Source: a virus (Duplodnaviria > Heunggongvirae > Uroviricota > Caudoviricetes). From it: a stretch of 29,075 nucleotides of DNA. The position numbers were made by a program, and so were the translations under genes. Positions 1 through 28,665 of this stretch are shown in pieces (the stretch's first letter is position 1; every line of letters begins with the position of its first letter). The notes under the pieces were generated by a model. That model was not told the DNA's origin and made no database searches. It saw nothing but the letters and a program-made list of their open reading frames with translations. The stretch lies in IMG/VR virus record IMGVR_UViG_2541047746_000007, one strand, 5' to 3'.

Positions 1-90
1 TTGCCTCCCCCCCGTTGATGGGTAAAATAGCCGCAATTTTTCGTTTTCAACAAGCGCGGCGCGATGCCGCTTACTCAAGAAGAAAGAATT

Positions 91-165
91 ATGACGTTGT
101 CTCCTTATTTGCAAGAGGTGGCGAAGCGCCGCACTTTTGCCATTATTTCTCACCCCAATAATTAA
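91..165 (+). pseudogene. prfC: 5' fragment of peptide chain release factor 3 gene, truncated at the prophage junction
   Basis: ATG at 91 translates [22 protein letters not shown], which I recognise as the RF3 N-terminus; instead of continuing into the GTPase P-loop (D-A-G-K-T) it reads N-N-stop (TAA 163-165). Recalled from memory, not searched. Confidence 0.6.
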
Positions 166-319
166 GCCTAAATTAAAGCTCTTTTACTTTTTCAAAGTCC
201 TTTCAGTTAATTGATGTTTGGTTTTATAAGTCATTTAAATACAGTTAGTTATGTGGCTTCTTTAATTGAAAATTCTTTCATGTAACTTTAAATCGATCAG
301 GTTGCTTTCATCAAAAATC

Positions 320-377
320 TGTACATATGCTTGTACATAATGTACAAAGCAGCAGAGGTGTTTTGCGATTTGTACAA
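320..377. promoter_or_regulatory. Cluster of TGTACA-core palindromes upstream of int, including the perfect 17-bp palindrome TTGTACATAATGTACAA (331-347)
   Basis: Three TGTACA motifs within 60 bp directly upstream of the int start; the same TTGTAC/GTACAA half-sites recur in the cI-cro intergenic operator at 6648-6666. Confidence 0.4.
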
Positions 378-385
378 GGTGAGTA

Positions 386-1621
386 ATGGCGCTGTCTGAT
401 GCGTGGTTGCGTTCAGTCGTTGGAAAGGAACGTGATAAGGTTTTGGTTAAATCCGATCGTGATGGTCTGTCTGTCAGAGTATCACCGAAAGGTCGCGTAG
501 TGTTCCAATATCGTTATCAATGGGCAGGGAAAGGTGAGCGCCTTGATATCGGAACTTACCCGGCAACTGGATTAAAAGAGGCCAGAGAAGAAGTTATCCG
601 TCTCCGTGGTGAACTCGAGTCAAGCCGCAATCCACGATTAGTCAAGCAGGCTGAAAAACGAAAAGCTACTGAAGCCATGACGGTAGAGTCTGTGATCCGT
701 GCCTGGTATGAAGCATATTGTGTAAAAAATAAAAAAGGTTCTGAACAGATACTCCGCTCGTTTGAGCTGCACCTGTTCTCTAAAATCGGGAATATCCCTC
801 ACGATGCAGCTACATTGCATGATTGGTTAGAAGTCCTGGAGCCTCTTAGCACCAAGACTCCAGCAATAGTAGACCGATTGCTAATTAACGCAAAGCAGGC
901 TCATGTCTGGGCGTATAAGAGAAAGCTCATTGAAACTCGCCCACTGTCGGATATCACGGGTAAAGATATGGATATCCGTAAAGGTCAGAAAAAACGGTTT
1001 CTGACACATGATGAAATTAACATCCTTTATGCTGCGATCGATGGTTCTCGAATGGTTCCTAAATACCGAGCCTTCATTAAACTATTGCTGCATTTTGGTT
1101 GCCGTAGTTCAGAGCTAATTACTGCTAGGGTGGATGATTTTGATTTCATAAATAAGGTATGGACTGTACCACCAGAACGACATAAGACTGGGGACATAAC
1201 AGGCGAACCGCTAAAGCGGCCCATTATTGAACCGGTTGAAGAGCTTATAAAATACGTTATCTCTATGAACAACGGTTCCGATATGCTTTTTACTAAGGAA
1301 GGAAGCAGGGAGCCAGTTGGTCGGACATCATTGCAGTCGCTGCCTTACAATTTAATGCAGTTCGCATGGCGACGTTTGGGGTATCAATTTCCTCATTGGT
1401 CTCTTCATGATTTGAGACGAACAGCACGAACAAACTTTTCTGATCTTACTGCTCCTCATATTGCTGAAATAATGCTTGGTCATAAACTGCCAGGTGTATG
1501 GCAAGTTTATGATAAGAGCGATTATCTAGAAGAACAGCGTAAAGCTTACTGGGCATGGTGGGAGAGGGTTGAATCGATCGTTACTTGTACTGACTTAATC
1601 TCCAACGGACAGTTTGCGTAG
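386..1621 (+). CDS. int: Tyrosine recombinase / phage integrase, P4-type with N-terminal arm-binding (DUF4102-like) domain
   Basis: 411-aa ORF. N-terminus (LSDAWLRS...GLSVRVSPKGRVVFQYRY...DIGTYP) fits the P4-integrase arm-binding pattern; C-terminus has HDLRRTARTNF and a downstream Tyr typical of tyrosine recombinases. RBS AAGGTGAG precedes the ATG. Sits next to the host junction. Confidence 0.9.
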   Translation: MALSDAWLRSVVGKERDKVLVKSDRDGLSVRVSPKGRVVFQYRYQWAGKGERLDIGTYPATGLKEAREEVIRLRGELESSRNPRLVKQAEKRKATEAMTVESVIRAWYEAYCVKNKKGSEQILRSFELHLFSKIGNIPHDAATLHDWLEVLEPLSTKTPAIVDRLLINAKQAHVWAYKRKLIETRPLSDITGKDMDIRKGQKKRFLTHDEINILYAAIDGSRMVPKYRAFIKLLLHFGCRSSELITARVDDFDFINKVWTVPPERHKTGDITGEPLKRPIIEPVEELIKYVISMNNGSDMLFTKEGSREPVGRTSLQSLPYNLMQFAWRRLGYQFPHWSLHDLRRTARTNFSDLTAPHIAEIMLGHKLPGVWQVYDKSDYLEEQRKAYWAWWERVESIVTCTDLISNGQFA

Positions 1622-5956: not shown

Positions 5957-6631
5957 TTAGGCCTTTATTGTGTATCTTCTTGGTTTTCCCGAGAAAATCA
6001 CTGTACCAATTATAGAGCAATTACCGTTAATCTTAATGTAAGGCTCAGGCCAGTTTGGGTTTAATGCTTTGAGATAACGCTGTGTTCCATCTTCTATCAA
6101 TCGCTTGAAGGTGGTTTCGCCTGTATCGTGCATCAATGCAATAACGTCGTCACCGTGGCAGGCAGGGACTTCGGGATCAACAAAAATCATGTCTCCAGGG
6201 CGGTACTCATCAATCATTGAATCACCAATCACCCGCAAGATATAAGTCATTTCGCCACAGGGTACAGGGCAGGGATACGTTTCTGCTGTGCTCAAATCAA
6301 CCTCAGAATAGCCAACTTCTTTCCATGCTCCGGCCTGTACCCATGATATGACAGGGACTAACGTTATTTGTTTGTTAGTGATTGAAACATCAGGTTTTTT
6401 TGTGATGTTCGTTGTCTGGTGTTCTTGATCAAGCCATCCGACAGGCAGGTCGAAACATTTTTCGATGTGCCGTGCCATGCTGTCACCGATATTTTTAGTA
6501 GCGCCATCCCCCATAAACCTGCTGGTTTGGGTTGGCTCGCGATCAATCATGGTGGCAAAGGATGAATTTCCGCCAACACCATCTCTCAGTTTTCTGGCGT
6601 TAGACCGCCGGATGTCATGGATTGTTTTCAT
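5957..6631 (-). CDS. cI: CI-type repressor (HTH_XRE N-terminal domain + S24/LexA-like peptidase C-terminal domain)
   Basis: 224 aa; N-terminal HTH region, C-terminal GDSM serine motif with a downstream lysine typical of autocleaving S24 repressors. Divergent from cro across an operator region. Confidence 0.85.
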   Translation of the reverse strand: MKTIHDIRRSNARKLRDGVGGNSSFATMIDREPTQTSRFMGDGATKNIGDSMARHIEKCFDLPVGWLDQEHQTTNITKKPDVSITNKQITLVPVISWVQAGAWKEVGYSEVDLSTAETYPCPVPCGEMTYILRVIGDSMIDEYRPGDMIFVDPEVPACHGDDVIALMHDTGETTFKRLIEDGTQRYLKALNPNWPEPYIKINGNCSIIGTVIFSGKPRRYTIKA

Positions 6632-22382: not shown

Positions 22383-22874
22383 ATGGATCATGAGTTGAAA
22401 AACCTGGTGCTGAATATTAATCAACTGGCGGCTTTATCTGGTCTGCACCGCCAGACTGTCGTGGCAAGACTGAAAAACATTCGTCCCGCTGGTGGACATG
22501 ACAAACTCAAGCTATACCGGTTGACCGATATTCTGACTGAATTTATGGGGTTACCACCGCCGGTTGCTGAGGGCGAAATGGATCCACATGAACGCAAAGC
22601 CTGGTATCAGTCTGAACGTGAGCGTCTTAAGTTCGAACAGGAAACGGCACAACTCATTCCGGCCAGTGATGTCAGACGGGAGTTTGCCATCTGGGCAAAA
22701 GCGGTCGTGCAGGTGCTGGAGACATTACCGGATATTCTGGAACGTGACTGCGGCCTGCAGCCTGCCGCTGTGAGCCGTGTTCAGTCCATTATTGATGATC
22801 TGCGCGATCAGATAGCCCTGCGGGTGACCGAAGCAGGTGCGGATGATGAGGAGGAATTACAGCAGGAGGAGTAA
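22383..22874 (+). CDS. Terminase small subunit (Nu1-like, N-terminal HTH)
   Basis: 163 aa; N-terminal LNINQLAALSGLHRQTVVARLKN helix-turn-helix, acidic C-terminus. Stop overlaps the large-terminase start (TAATG). RBS GGAGG. Confidence 0.75.
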   Translation: MDHELKNLVLNINQLAALSGLHRQTVVARLKNIRPAGGHDKLKLYRLTDILTEFMGLPPPVAEGEMDPHERKAWYQSERERLKFEQETAQLIPASDVRREFAIWAKAVVQVLETLPDILERDCGLQPAAVSRVQSIIDDLRDQIALRVTEAGADDEEELQQEE

Positions 22875-24976
22875 TGCTGAATCAGGAAACCGCAAAGGCA
22901 GCACGAACCGATTCAGGTTATATCCTTCGCGCACCGAGACGAATGCGGGTTGCTGATGCCGTTGCTCAGTATATGCGGGTGCCCATGGGGGCCGGGAACT
23001 CAGTCCCGTGGGATCCGCTGGTGGCACCGTATGTTATTGAGCCTATGAACTGCCTGGCCTCGCGTGAATACGACGCAGTGATATTTGTTGGCCCGGCACG
23101 AACCGGCAAGACTATCGGCCTGATTGACGGCTGGGTGATTTACAACGTGATTTGCGATCCTGCTGATATGCTGATCATTCAGATGACGGAGGAAAAAGCC
23201 CGCGAACACTCCAAAAAACGACTCGCCAGAACGTTTCGCGTCAGCCCGGAAGTGGTCAGTCGCCTGAGTCCGAACAAAAATGACAACAACGTTTATGACA
23301 GAACATTCCTTGCTGGCAACTACCTGAAAATCGGCTGGCCGTCAGTCAATATCATGTCCTCATCAGATTATAAATGCGTGGCGCTGACGGATTATGACCG
23401 TTTTCCGGAAGATATTGATGGCGAGGGGGATGCCTTCTCTCTTGCCTCAAAACGTACCACCACATTTATGTCCAGTGGTATGACGCTGGTGGAGAGTTCC
23501 CCCGGCAGGGATGTGAAGGATGTGAAATGGCGACGGACTTCACCGCATGAGGCTCCACCAACCACGGGGATCCTGTCGCTCTATAACCGTGGCGATCGCC
23601 GTCGCTGGTACTGGCCCTGTCCACACTGTGGTGAGTATTTTCAGCCCTGCGGCGATGTGGTTGCTGGTTTCCGTGATATTGCCGATCCCGTGCTGGCAAG
23701 TGAGGCGGCTTATATTCAGTGTCCTTCCTGTTCAGGACGGATTATGCCTGAACAAAAACGTGAGCTGAACGGACGTGGGGTCTGGTTGCGGGATGGTGAA
23801 TCCATCAATGCGGATGGCAGTCGTTATGGTGATCCCCGACGCTCACGTATTGCGTCATTCTGGATGGAGGGTCCGGCAGCTGCTTACCAGACACTCTCGC
23901 AACTCGTTTACAAACTGCTTGCTGCAGAACAGGAATACGAGACAACCGGAAGTGAAGAAACACTCAAGACGGTTATCAATACCGACTGGGGATTACCTTA
24001 TCTTCCCCGTGCCAGCATGGAGCAACGAAAAAGTGAACTGCTTGAGCAGCGGGCAGAGCCAGTTCCTTCCCGCAGTGTGCCGGATGGCGTTAATTTCCTG
24101 GTGGCGACAGTTGATGTGCAGGCGGGACGTCATCGCCGTTTTGTGGTTCAGGTAACGGGCTATGGCAGCCGTGGCGAACGCTGGATTATTGATCGTTACA
24201 ACATCACGCAGTCATTGCGCGGTGACAGCGACGGGGAGAGCCAGCGAATTGATCCGGCCAGCTATCCGGAAGACTGGGATGTCCTGCTGACGGATGTTTT
24301 TCATAAAAGCTGGCCGCTGGCCTCCGATCCTTCTCAACAAATGCGACTGATGGCAATGGCGGTGGACTCCGGCGGTGAAGACGGAGTCACTGATAATGCC
24401 TATAAATTCTGGCGTCGTTGCCGTCGTGATGGCCTTGGTAAACGTATTTACCTGTTTAAGGGCGACAGCATCCGGCGCGCAAAACTGATCACCCGTACAT
24501 TCCCTGATAACACCGGACGAACGGGCCGACGGGCGCAGGCCGCAGGTGATGTACCGCTCTGGCTTCTTCAGACGGATGCCCTGAAAGACCGGGTGAATAA
24601 CGCGTTATGGCGTGACTCGCCAGGTCCCGGCTATGTGCATTTCCCTGACTGGCTGGGGAGCTGGTTTTACGACGAACTGACGTATGAAGAGCGGAGCAGT
24701 GACGGGAAATGGAGTAAGCCGGGTCGCGGTGCCAACGAAGCTTTTGACCTGATGGTGTATGCCGAGGCTCTGGTCATTCTGCATGGATACGAAAAGATCC
24801 GCTGGCCGGATGCACCGGAGTGGGCGAGCCGGGAAACCTGGCTGGAGTGTGTCCCGGACAGTACCGAACCGTCACCCACACCGGAACCGGTATCCACGCC
24901 TGTTAAAAAACAAAAACGGAAGAAAACAGTAACTGACGATGTTAACCCCTGGCTGACTTCCGGAGGATGGTTATGA
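22874..24976 (+). CDS. Terminase large subunit (GpA family)
   Basis: 700 aa; Walker A (GPARTGKT) and a CPHCGE zinc motif that aligns with lambda gpA (ACPHCGEE). Confidence 0.9.
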   Translation: MLNQETAKAARTDSGYILRAPRRMRVADAVAQYMRVPMGAGNSVPWDPLVAPYVIEPMNCLASREYDAVIFVGPARTGKTIGLIDGWVIYNVICDPADMLIIQMTEEKAREHSKKRLARTFRVSPEVVSRLSPNKNDNNVYDRTFLAGNYLKIGWPSVNIMSSSDYKCVALTDYDRFPEDIDGEGDAFSLASKRTTTFMSSGMTLVESSPGRDVKDVKWRRTSPHEAPPTTGILSLYNRGDRRRWYWPCPHCGEYFQPCGDVVAGFRDIADPVLASEAAYIQCPSCSGRIMPEQKRELNGRGVWLRDGESINADGSRYGDPRRSRIASFWMEGPAAAYQTLSQLVYKLLAAEQEYETTGSEETLKTVINTDWGLPYLPRASMEQRKSELLEQRAEPVPSRSVPDGVNFLVATVDVQAGRHRRFVVQVTGYGSRGERWIIDRYNITQSLRGDSDGESQRIDPASYPEDWDVLLTDVFHKSWPLASDPSQQMRLMAMAVDSGGEDGVTDNAYKFWRRCRRDGLGKRIYLFKGDSIRRAKLITRTFPDNTGRTGRRAQAAGDVPLWLLQTDALKDRVNNALWRDSPGPGYVHFPDWLGSWFYDELTYEERSSDGKWSKPGRGANEAFDLMVYAEALVILHGYEKIRWPDAPEWASRETWLECVPDSTEPSPTPEPVSTPVKKQKRKKTVTDDVNPWLTSGGWL

Positions 24977-25185
24977 ACCAGAATGATATCGAAGCCATGA
25001 TTCAGCGTTATACGGAAGCTGAAATGGCGGTGCTGGACGGAAAATCCGTCACCTTTAATGGTCAGCAGATGACCATGGAAAACTTATCTGAGATCCGGCA
25101 GGGACGGCAGGAGTGGGAGCGCCGCCTTGCGGCTCTGATTACACGACGACGGGGGCATCCCGGGTACCGGCTTGCGAGGTTCTGA
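24973..25185 (+). CDS. Head-tail joining protein gpW-like
   Basis: 70 aa from the ATG at 24973 (RBS GGAGG, ATGA overlap with the terminase stop). C-terminal RRRGHPGY resembles the lambda gpW tail (RRRGPAGFYV). Confidence 0.7.
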   Translation: MNQNDIEAMIQRYTEAEMAVLDGKSVTFNGQQMTMENLSEIRQGRQEWERRLAALITRRRGHPGYRLARF

Positions 25186-26693
25186 TGGCAATTCTTGATG
25201 ATGTGATTGGCGTTTTTTCACCAGGATGGAAAGCGGCAAGGCTGCGTTCCCGTGCGGTGATCCAGGCTTATGAGGCCGTAAAAACGACGCGGACACACAA
25301 AGCCCGGCGGGAAAACCGAACTGCCGACCAGTTAAGCCAGTACGGGGCCGTGTCGTTACGTGAGCAGGCCCGTTACCTTGATAACAACCACGATCTGGTC
25401 ATTGGTGTATTTGACAAGCTGGAAGAACGGGTGGTGGGGAAAAACGGGATTATTGTCGAGCCACATCCGGTATTACGCAATGGGGCCATTGCCCGTGATC
25501 TGGCAGCGGAGATACGCACCCGATGGAGTGAATGGTCTGTCAGTCCGGAAGTCACCGGGCAGTTTACCCGTCCGATGCTGGAACGTCTGATGTTGCGTAC
25601 CTGGCTGCGCGATGGTGAGGTGTTTGCCCAGATGGTTTCCGGGCGCATAAACAGCCTGACGCCTTCTGCCGGTGTTCATTTCTGGCTGGAGGCGCTCGAG
25701 CCGGACTTTATTCCCATGACCAGTGATGAGAGCAACAGGCTGAATCAGGGCGTGTTTGTTGATGACTGGGGGCGTCCCGAAAAATATCTGGTGTATAAAA
25801 GCCGTCCCGTATCCGGACGGCAGATGGAAACCAAAGAAGTGGATGCAGAGCGAATGCTGCATCTTAAATTTGTTCGCCGTCTGCACCAGATGCGCGGGAC
25901 GTCTTTGTTGTCCGGTGTGCTGATCCGCCTCAGTGCCCTGAAAGAGTATGAAGATTCTGAGCTGACTGCAGCAAGGATCGCCGCTGCTCTGGGGATGTAC
26001 ATCCGGAAAGGCGACGGGCAGAGCTATGAACCGGATGGTAATGGCAGCAAGGATAAGGAACGCGAGCTTACCATTCAGCCAGGCATTATTTACGACGATC
26101 TGAAACCCGGCGAAGAAATCGGAATGGTGAAGTCGGATCGCCCCAATCCTAATCTTGAAACTTTTCGTAATGGTCAGTTGCGTGCCGTGGCGGCGGGCAG
26201 TCGTCTGAGTTTTTCCAGTACAGCGCGCAACTATAACGGCACTTACAGCGCCCAGCGTCAGGAGCTGGTTGAATCCACTGATGGCTACCTGATCCTGCAG
26301 GACTGGTTTATTGGTGCCGTCACCCGCCCGATGTATCGTGCCTGGCTGAAACAGGCTGTGGCATCCGGTGTTATCAGGCTACCCCGCGATCTTGATCGTT
26401 CTTCACTGTATACCGCGGTGTATTCCGGACCGGTGATGCCGTGGATTGACCCTGTTAAGGAGGCTGAGGCCTGGAAAATTCAGATTCGTGGTGGAGCGGC
26501 GACAGAATCAGACTGGGTACGTGCAGGTGGTCGTAATCCAGATGATGTCAAACGTCGGCGCAAGGCCGAAATTGATGAAAACCGCAAGCTGGATCTGGTA
26601 TTTGATACCGATCCGGCCAGTGATAAAGGAGGCAGCAGTGCCGCAACGAAACGACAGGAGCCGCAGCACACCGACGACCAGTCCGAAGAATAA
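25185..26693 (+). CDS. Portal protein (lambda gpB-like)
   Basis: 502 aa from the ATG at 25185 (ATGA overlap with the gpW stop); size and position between gpW and the protease/capsid gene. The track ORF start at 25113 is over-extended. Confidence 0.8.
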   Translation: MAILDDVIGVFSPGWKAARLRSRAVIQAYEAVKTTRTHKARRENRTADQLSQYGAVSLREQARYLDNNHDLVIGVFDKLEERVVGKNGIIVEPHPVLRNGAIARDLAAEIRTRWSEWSVSPEVTGQFTRPMLERLMLRTWLRDGEVFAQMVSGRINSLTPSAGVHFWLEALEPDFIPMTSDESNRLNQGVFVDDWGRPEKYLVYKSRPVSGRQMETKEVDAERMLHLKFVRRLHQMRGTSLLSGVLIRLSALKEYEDSELTAARIAAALGMYIRKGDGQSYEPDGNGSKDKERELTIQPGIIYDDLKPGEEIGMVKSDRPNPNLETFRNGQLRAVAAGSRLSFSSTARNYNGTYSAQRQELVESTDGYLILQDWFIGAVTRPMYRAWLKQAVASGVIRLPRDLDRSSLYTAVYSGPVMPWIDPVKEAEAWKIQIRGGAATESDWVRAGGRNPDDVKRRRKAEIDENRKLDLVFDTDPASDKGGSSAATKRQEPQHTDDQSEE

Positions 26694-28665
26694 TTCCTGG
26701 TTCAGGATGCAGGCAGGTCACCAGAGTGACGCGGATATTTATATTTATGACGAGATTGGTTTCTGGGGTGTTACGGCGAAGCAGTTTATCAGTGATCTGA
26801 ATGCACTGGGCGATATCACCCACATTAATCTCCATATTAATTCACCGGGTGGCGATGTCTTTGAAGGCATCGCCATTTTTAATGCACTGAAAACACATGG
26901 TGCGTCCATTACCGTTTATGTCGACGGTGTGGCGGCGTCAATGGCGTCGGTCATTGCGATGGTGGGAAACCCGGTCATTATGCCGGAAAACTCCTTCATG
27001 ATGATTCATAAACCATTTGGCTTTACGGGCGGTGATGCGGAGGACATGCGCACCTATGCCGACCTGCTCGATAAAGTTGAGGCGGTTCTGTTACCCGCTT
27101 ATGCACAGAAAACCGGGAAAACCACCGATGAAATTGCTGCCATGCTGGCGGATGAGACCTGGATGTCCGGTGCCGAATGTCTGGCACAGGGATTTGCTGA
27201 TCAGGTGACACCAGCCGTTAAGGCAATGGCATGTATTCAGTCAAAACGTACAGAGGAATTTAAAAAGATGCCGGAATCCATTCGAAATATGATTACTCCG
27301 CCACGCAACAGTGCTCCACGCGTACAGGATGATGGACCTGCAGCCTCCCGGACGCCAGTGCAGGCAGCAGCACCCGTGGTGGATGAAAACAGCATCCGTG
27401 CGCAGGTCCTGGCAGAGCAAAAAGCGCGTGTAAACGGTATTAATGATCTGTTTGCCATGTTTGGCGGGCGTTATCAGTCGTTGCAGGCTCAGTGTCTTGC
27501 CGATCCTGAATGTTCGCTGGAGCAGGCCCGCGAAAAGCTGTTGAACGAGATGGGGCGCGAGTCCACGCCATCCAATAAAAATACCCCGGCTCATATTTAT
27601 GCCGGTAACGGTAATTTTGTGGGGGACGGGATCCGCCAGGCGCTGATGGCGCGCGCCGGGTTTGAAAAAACTGAACGTGATAATGTCTACAACGGGATGA
27701 CCCTGCGTGAATATGCCCGTATGTCACTGACTGAACGTGGTATTGGTGTTTCCAGTTATAACCCGATGCAGATGGTCGGTGCGGCGTTCACACACAGTAC
27801 GTCTGACTTCGGTAATATTCTGCTGGATGTTGCGAACAAAGCCATTCTGCAGGGCTGGGAAGATGCCCCTGAAACCTATGAACAGTGGACGCGGAAAGGT
27901 CAGTTGTCTGATTTTAAAATTGCCCATCGTGTGGGTATGGGGGGCTTCAGTGCTCTGCGTCAGGTGCGTGAAGGGGCAGAATATAAATACGTCACCACCG
28001 GAGATAAACAGGCCACTATTGCACTGGCGACCTATGGCGAGCTGTTCAGTATCACCCGTCAGGCCATTATCAATGATGATCTGAATATGCTGACCGATGT
28101 CCCGATGAAGCTGGGCCGTGCGGCGAAATCCACTATTGCCGATCTGGTTTATGCCATTCTGACGTCTAACCCGAAAATCTCCACAGATAATGTAAGTCTG
28201 TTCGATAAAGCGAAACATGCAAACGTACTGGAGAGCGCGGCAATGGACGTGGCATCGCTGGATAAAGCCCGCCAGTTGATGCGCGTTCAGAAAGAGGGTG
28301 AGCGTCATCTGAATATTCGTCCTGCGTTCGTACTGGTACCGACGGCGATGGAGTCTGTTGCTAACCAGGTCATTCGCTCCTCAAGTGTCAAGGGGGCTGA
28401 CATTAACGCCGGTATTATTAACCCGGTGAAAGATTTTGCGACCGTTATTGCAGAGCCTCGTCTTGATGATAACAGCCAGACCACCTTCTACCTGGCTGCG
28501 TCCAAAGGCTCCGATACGATTGAAGTGGCTTATCTCAACGGTGTGGATACGCCATATATTGATCAGATGGAGGGCTTCAGTGTGGATGGCGTGACAACGA
28601 AAGTGCGTATTGACGCTGGTGTTGCGCCAGTTGATCACCGCGGCCTGGTGAAATGTACGGCGTAA
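26638..28665 (+). CDS. Prohead protease (ClpP/S14-like) fused to a major capsid protein domain
   Basis: N-terminal ClpP-like segment (IYIYDEIGFWGV...INSPGGDVFEGIAIFNAL...ASMASVIAM), then a linker and a large C-terminal capsid-like domain. GTG at 26638 has a strong RBS (AAGGAGG); ATG at 26706 is an alternative start. Confidence 0.75.
   Translation: MPQRNDRSRSTPTTSPKNNSWFRMQAGHQSDADIYIYDEIGFWGVTAKQFISDLNALGDITHINLHINSPGGDVFEGIAIFNALKTHGASITVYVDGVAASMASVIAMVGNPVIMPENSFMMIHKPFGFTGGDAEDMRTYADLLDKVEAVLLPAYAQKTGKTTDEIAAMLADETWMSGAECLAQGFADQVTPAVKAMACIQSKRTEEFKKMPESIRNMITPPRNSAPRVQDDGPAASRTPVQAAAPVVDENSIRAQVLAEQKARVNGINDLFAMFGGRYQSLQAQCLADPECSLEQAREKLLNEMGRESTPSNKNTPAHIYAGNGNFVGDGIRQALMARAGFEKTERDNVYNGMTLREYARMSLTERGIGVSSYNPMQMVGAAFTHSTSDFGNILLDVANKAILQGWEDAPETYEQWTRKGQLSDFKIAHRVGMGGFSALRQVREGAEYKYVTTGDKQATIALATYGELFSITRQAIINDDLNMLTDVPMKLGRAAKSTIADLVYAILTSNPKISTDNVSLFDKAKHANVLESAAMDVASLDKARQLMRVQKEGERHLNIRPAFVLVPTAMESVANQVIRSSSVKGADINAGIINPVKDFATVIAEPRLDDNSQTTFYLAASKGSDTIEVAYLNGVDTPYIDQMEGFSVDGVTTKVRIDAGVAPVDHRGLVKCTA

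Follow-up and report, generated by a model that had tools for sequence, protein, structure and literature searches.

A lambda-like prophage junction at the 5′ end of Escherichia coli prfC and the substitute gene start carried by its relatives

The stretch of viral DNA considered here (IMG/VR record IMGVR_UViG_2541047746_000007; 29,075 nt, hereafter the window) opens on what looks like the beginning of a bacterial gene and raises the question of whether a phage has entered prfC, the gene for release factor 3 (RF3), at its 5′ end and, if so, what becomes of the gene. Alignment with the genome of E. coli K-12 MG1655 revealed that window positions 1–155 are identical to chromosomal positions 4609324–4609478 without a mismatch (155/155 nt). 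This K-12 stretch begins just past the stop codon of yjjG and comprises the yjjG–prfC spacer together with nucleotides 1–65 of prfC. From base 156 onward, the aligned window sequence is unrelated to prfC. The initial annotation, made from the letters alone, had placed a prophage junction within the 5′ coding region of prfC, and the change from K-12 identity to divergence at base 156, read directly from the alignment, bears this out. Translation of positions 91–168 yielded 22 RF3 residues followed by Asn-Asn and a stop codon (163–165), 24 amino acids in total, and intact RF3 continues after Pro22 with DAGKT, the P-loop; the reading of this frame as a prfC stub that diverges just ahead of the P-loop was accurate to the codon. 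Because host identity stops at base 155, the third base of the Pro22 codon is phage DNA, although the codon still specifies proline. A sigma-70-like site at positions 1–28 (TTGCCT-16-TAAAAT, 9 of 12 positions) is a consensus match only.

The same junction was found in many other genomes. Among 5426 complete E. coli genomes, 701 matched positions 1–385 at a coverage of at least 80% and 5425 matched their prfC part, and a chance resemblance is therefore excluded. In the complete genomes that share the 385 bases, yjjG lies directly upstream, and the PGAP annotation gives the stub as an incomplete CDS with a tyrosine recombinase after it. The reading of 91–165 as an ORF that resembles prfC by chance, or as a duplicated piece that has nothing to do with an insertion, retains practically no probability: it is refuted by the K-12 identity, which extends through the upstream spacer, by the yjjG context, and by the remainder of prfC, which in the genomes with attL is found at the far end of the prophage. 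Collectively, these data support the assignment of positions 1–385 to the attL of a prophage within codons 17–22 of E. coli prfC (Table 1).

Table 1. Features of the window, with strand and the evidence for each assignment
Feature	Position	Strand	Evidence
Host yjjG–prfC intergenic DNA with native prfC leader	1–90	+	100% K-12 identity; yjjG end directly upstream
Truncated prfC stub: 22 RF3 codons and phage-encoded Asn-Asn-stop	91–165	+	Translation; K-12 alignment; PGAP incomplete CDS
14-bp att core ATTATTTCTCACCC, codons Ile18-Ile19-Ser20-His21-Pro22, just ahead of the P-loop	142–155	+	Three-way alignment; present in 2H10 attP
Phage P′ arm of attL	156–385	+	Divergence from prfC at base 156; four TGTACA(A) repeats
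Left part of lambda-like prophage, continuing past the right end of the window	156–29075		PHROG matches; gene map of one relative
Tyrosine integrase, 411 aa; arm-binding, central and catalytic domains	386–1621	+	Pfam; PHROG 1 integrase
CI-like repressor	5957–6631	-	PHROG
Antiterminator Q	15135–15887		PHROG
Large terminase	22874–24976		PHROG
Portal	25113–26693		PHROG
Protease/capsid fusion	26446–28665		PHROG

The crossover, which the initial annotation expected an alignment with an uninterrupted prfC locus to reveal, was located in this way. A three-way alignment of attB, attL and attR delimited a common core of 14 bp, ATTATTTCTCACCC, and the same core was directly observed in attP. Consistent with this placement, the depositors of the Stx2c phage LC727876 mark a 14-bp insertion duplication at the position that aligns with the core. 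A second core copy or an attR was also sought within the window, where the core proved to be single-copy and the right junction lies beyond the end; the window itself is therefore unable to show how prfC is reconstituted. Since the attR of this prophage falls outside the window, reconstitution was read in close relatives only.

In one such relative, NZ_CP076704, the far junction carries a ribosome-binding-site-like stretch and a phage ATG with 16 codons to the left of the 14-bp core. The far end of this prophage reads ...caaagagacaacaattATGACAAGCCTTTTGGCCGCAGAGGTAGCGAAAAGAAGAACCTTTGCAATTATTTCTCACCC and runs on into host prfC, so that attR is composed of phage-derived ATGACAAGCCTTTTGGCCGCAGAGGTAGCGAAAAGAAGAACCTTTGCA and the core, followed by host GGACGCCGGTAAG. 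The rebuilt ORF, observed as such in related lysogens, is an in-frame fusion of 528 aa in NZ_CP076704, where PGAP annotates it as an intact peptide chain release factor 3; compared with native RF3, it is one residue shorter and changed at residues 2–7. The initial annotation's proposal that prfC is restored in frame at attR thus holds in this relative. The free phage 2H10 (NC_049950) was found to carry the prfC mimic in an unsplit attP, with the order dinI (reading away), two LexA-box-like sites, TGTACAA repeats, the mini-prfC start, again TGTACAA repeats, and int. Because the 2H10 attP holds a prfC start and relatives carry the fusion at attR, the phage does carry a substitute prfC start.

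Across the nine codons to the left of the core (EVAKRRTFA), 8 of 27 nt differ from native prfC, and all eight differences are synonymous; when eight substitutions were drawn at random 200,000 times, not one set kept the peptide. The phage leader likewise retains a purine-rich stretch and AATTATGAC, like native prfC. Read codon by codon, these comparisons show that the phage piece codes for a proper RF3 N-terminus. The all-synonymous pattern could reflect selection within the phage or the capture of the prfC start of another bacterium.

From this evidence, we regard it as very probable that positions 1–385 are the attL of a lambda-like temperate phage that inserts at the 5′ end of prfC with its own tyrosine integrase and rebuilds RF3 at attR with its mimic. 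In this reading, recombination occurs within the 14-bp core common to attP and attB (prfC codons 18–22). The left arm of attP contains the prfC 5′ mimic, with a purine-rich leader, an ATG and codons, and integration moves it to attR, in frame with the remaining host prfC, a fusion by which the RF3 ORF is rebuilt. The native promoter and the first 22 codons stay behind at attL as a 24-codon stub pointing at int.

Whether the rebuilt ORF is also expressed bears on a different outcome, in which prfC is effectively knocked out: the ORF would be rebuilt on paper, but the phage arm would be without an adequate promoter or ribosome-binding site, and lysogens would be poor in RF3, a shortage that would be tolerated because prfC is dispensable. 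In line with that outcome, a strict sigma-70 scan of the P arm gave no match on the prfC strand ahead of the phage-borne ATG. Inspection of the P arm by eye revealed only the -10-like hexamers TACAAT and CATAAT, lying inside TGTACAA repeats and without a good -35. The neighbouring phage genes in NZ_CP076704 (dinI, a ynaM/ynfT-family gene, ydfK and a recombinase) are all oriented away from prfC and offer no read-through help; any transcription of prfC must therefore begin in the 219-bp spacer between dinI and prfC′. The initial annotation had treated prfC as a gene of essential function, which does not hold in E. coli: ΔprfC strains are viable and in routine use, and Ogura 2007 agrees. That study also reported that an Stx1 phage (O103) in prfC changes a short stretch at the N-terminus and takes away both the native promoter and the native ribosome-binding site, and left open whether the rebuilt gene is expressed, and Bobay 2013 listed prfC among the genes 'disrupted' by phage integration.

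Against a knock-out stand the in-frame phage copy with its eight of eight synonymous substitutions in conserved codons, the retained purine-rich leader and AATTATGAC, and the persistence of the arrangement with an intact ORF in ~13% of E. coli genomes. Analogous elements have, moreover, been shown experimentally to supply promoters: a new promoter was reported for the prfC gene rebuilt by SXT, and one was demonstrated with a lacZ fusion for a dusA element. We consider a knock-out improbable; a working promoter in the P arm and a functional chimeric RF3 are inferred. The replacement 5′ end that the initial annotation had expected the phage to carry was, accordingly, observed in its coding part, with N-terminal codons in frame at the attR of NZ_CP076704 and present in the attP of 2H10, whereas its promoter part, for which the strict scan gave no match, stands as a prediction.

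Two LexA-box-like sites (CTGT-N8-ACAG) were noted in the P arm of 2H10 (locus L084, 1249–1264 and 1277–1292), and an identical sequence occurs in a second locus (L002, 1840–1885). SOS control of the rebuilt prfC was judged unlikely, as the sites lie 15–60 nt from the divergent dinI start and 160–200 nt upstream of the prfC′ ATG; by position, they probably control the dinI-like gene, which diverges from the phage-borne prfC start, rather than prfC. The part of the P arm nearest to dinI, with these sites, also appears on an 88.9-kb plasmid (NZ_CP024617.1, 8735–8808), where a stretch annotated as 'site-specific integrase' is a 94.6% match to the initial 74 bases of the attR query.

TGTACA(A) repeats lie in the P′ arm at 320–325, 332–337, 341–346 and 371–376, and this short arm holds four of the seven TGTACA copies of the 29-kb window. 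In 2H10 (L084, 1318–1432 and 1690–1736), all eight TGTACAA copies of a 4.5-kb stretch fall within attP, with four to the left and four to the right of the core, a clustering that none of 200 shuffles reached. These repeats are likely candidates for the arm-binding sites of the integrase. The sole -10-like hexamers ahead of the phage-borne prfC start overlap with them. The integrase itself has matches to PF13356 (Arm-DNA-bind_3, formerly DUF4102; E = 6.7e-16), PF22022 and PF00589 (E = 6.1e-17), and an NCBIfam search returned sub-threshold integrase matches only. A tRNA-targeting system was rejected because tRNA genes are absent from the window and from the surroundings of those integrase relatives that have no prfC stub. 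Directly after int, a 377-aa ORF (1780–2913) gave no Pfam match and matched PHROG 7779, a family of unknown function, with E = 1e-246; the gene in this position varies among the relatives examined.

The stub and int are co-directional, the int start lying 230 nt beyond the core. No terminator-like site was found within window positions 1–500, and the RNA structure of the spacer from stub to int (156–400) showed no excess over shuffles (z = 0.16). Integration might then also exchange promoters, such that the host prfC promoter reads through the stub into int while RF3 comes to depend on a weak phage promoter in the TGTACAA repeats. Under such an exchange, the integrase or the state of the phage could tune RF3 and host regulation could set basal int expression. 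Read-through from the host promoter is proposed on the grounds that a terminator-like site was not found and that the spacing is kept across the family, but we hold this extension of the model to be improbable. If it were true, integrase occupancy or phage state could adjust the level of RF3 and with it termination fidelity, and host regulation of a translation factor could set the basal expression of int.

Beyond the junction, the window encodes what is expected of a lambda-like temperate prophage: an integrase, a CI-like repressor, Q, lysis genes, and a terminase/portal/capsid module. Prophages located at prfC in complete E. coli genomes matched 82–84% of window positions 1–25000 at ~98% identity. 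The prophage of NZ_CP076704 (84% matched at 97.7% identity), which was mapped as a whole, is a lambda-like element of ~46 kb that separates yjjG from prfC and has a complete head-tail module. The junction could, alternatively, be a fossil, left by a decayed and immobile prophage that is inherited vertically; the visible part of the element is its left 29 kb only, and IS elements occur in some relatives. Such decay is hard to reconcile with an uninterrupted integrase ORF and with the repressor, Q, terminase, portal and capsid genes in the window. Close relatives have been deposited as phage genomes, among them 2H10 and cdtI, which have the same int and an unsplit attP. The prfC junction, furthermore, occurs in hosts of many sources, and most genomes have an empty site: among the 5426 complete E. 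coli genomes, direct counts gave attL in 701 (~13%), attR in 684 and an uninterrupted attB in 4717 (87%). We accordingly regard a fossil as very unlikely and retain the active-phage explanation. The same counts indicate that nearly all interruptions of the prfC site are of this one type.

The integrase region of the window is shared with phage cdtI (NC_009514; 96.1% over the int region), with 27 Stx1a- and Stx2c-converting phages, with 2H10 and with PhiR63_1. Over window positions 142–1621, which include the core, the P′ arm and int, DNA identity was 95–96% to cdtI, 2H10 and the Stx1a/Stx2c phages and 99.9% to PhiR63_1. The window thus has its integrase, core, host gene and position in common with cdtI, the O103 Stx1 phage, the CC119 Stx1a/Stx2c phages (LC7278xx), 2H10 and PhiR63_1, whereas the cargo and the late regions vary between them; no stx or cdt gene was noticed among the ORFs examined. 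In Nakamura 2023, Stx1a and Stx2c phages were mapped to prfC, and Smyshlyaev 2021 placed the integrases of phage cdtI and of SXT in one cluster, all members of which insert at prfC. Integration at the 5′ end of a gene is indeed uncommon, as the initial annotation remarked, although insertion at prfC has long been described for phage cdtI and for Stx1 and Stx2c phages; the arrangement is no new biology.

The SXT/R391 integrative conjugative elements also insert at the 5′ end of prfC (Hochhut & Waldor 1999). With a published SXT int/attL primer, SXT-type left junctions were recovered from metagenomes at 42 loci (L165–L206), and in 38 of the 42 the host stub ends at the same prfC codons as the phage stub. 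One of these loci (L206) holds an SXT/R391-type element in an E. coli-type prfC. The SXT-type integrase of 413 aa is homologous to that of the window and has the same domain layout, with 38.6% identity over the full length (E = 3.5e-90). Its arm contains GTACAA repeats, mostly TGTACAAA, compared with TGTACA(A) in the window. In SXT/R391, int is found 0.8–2.1 kb into the element and on the other strand, so that it converges with the stub (for example, L168, reverse complement 1–2100), unlike the co-directional phage int close to the core. SXT/R391 elements are also conjugative, whereas the element of the window is a phage.

Membership in SXT/R391 was rejected on two grounds. Members have an integrase nearly identical (~99%) to IntSXT, and that of the window is only 38.6% identical; they also share a conserved conjugative-transfer backbone, in place of which the window encodes lambda-like repressor, Q, terminase, portal and capsid genes and the full relative has tail genes. 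The window does have the features of the broader IntSXT-subgroup, prfC-targeting ('SXT') cluster of Smyshlyaev 2021, namely, the DUF4102/Arm-DNA-bind_3 and catalytic domains together with insertion at prfC. Integrase homology, the same site and this cluster placement therefore identify the element as a phage whose integrase belongs to a known prfC-targeting group. The same strategy of 5′-end insertion with replacement N-terminal codons is followed at a different target gene by the dusA elements (Farrugia 2015; IMEVchUSA3, Durand 2021), which bring a new promoter as well.

To place the integrase in a wider family, 80 loci were retrieved from representative genomes with a profile of its relatives. 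In 19 of the 80, int begins 203–237 nt past the His codon of a prfC stub, with the same cut irrespective of the synonymous codons of the host; these relatives, from other Proteobacteria, come from Pantoea, Serratia, Pseudomonas, Marinobacterium, Methylobacter, Variovorax, Halomonas, Microbulbifer and others. When IMG/VR viral contigs were scanned with the integrase profile for divergent attP, the matches were confined to near-identical fragments of E. coli prophages that begin at int, and no diversity was gained.

Nine further loci (L033–L037, L039, L043, L046 and L056) encode integrases of 44–47% identity beside a 5′ stub of another host gene, lepA (EF4). The lepA stub is cut at MKNIRNFSIIAHID| (peptide NFSIIAHID|), which is homologous to the prfC cut and corresponds to the start of the P-loop in a paralogous translational GTPase. 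The distance from the His codon of this stub to int is 208–226 nt, like that of the prfC relatives, and the lepA and prfC target DNAs have 16 of 23 bases in common. A prophage insertion in Salmonella lepA is mentioned for Hermans 2006 in the account given by Bobay 2013. Because the lepA-type integrase (46.6%) is closer to that of the window than the SXT-type prfC integrase is (38.6%), these comparisons suggest that integrases of this family may have switched targets between paralogous GTPase genes.

The locus therefore provides a clear textbook case in which a phage targets the highly conserved codons that lead into the P-loop of a translational GTPase, carrying a spare gene start in return. 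Surveys that score prfC as 'disrupted' in such lysogens are probably wrong as far as the ORF is concerned.
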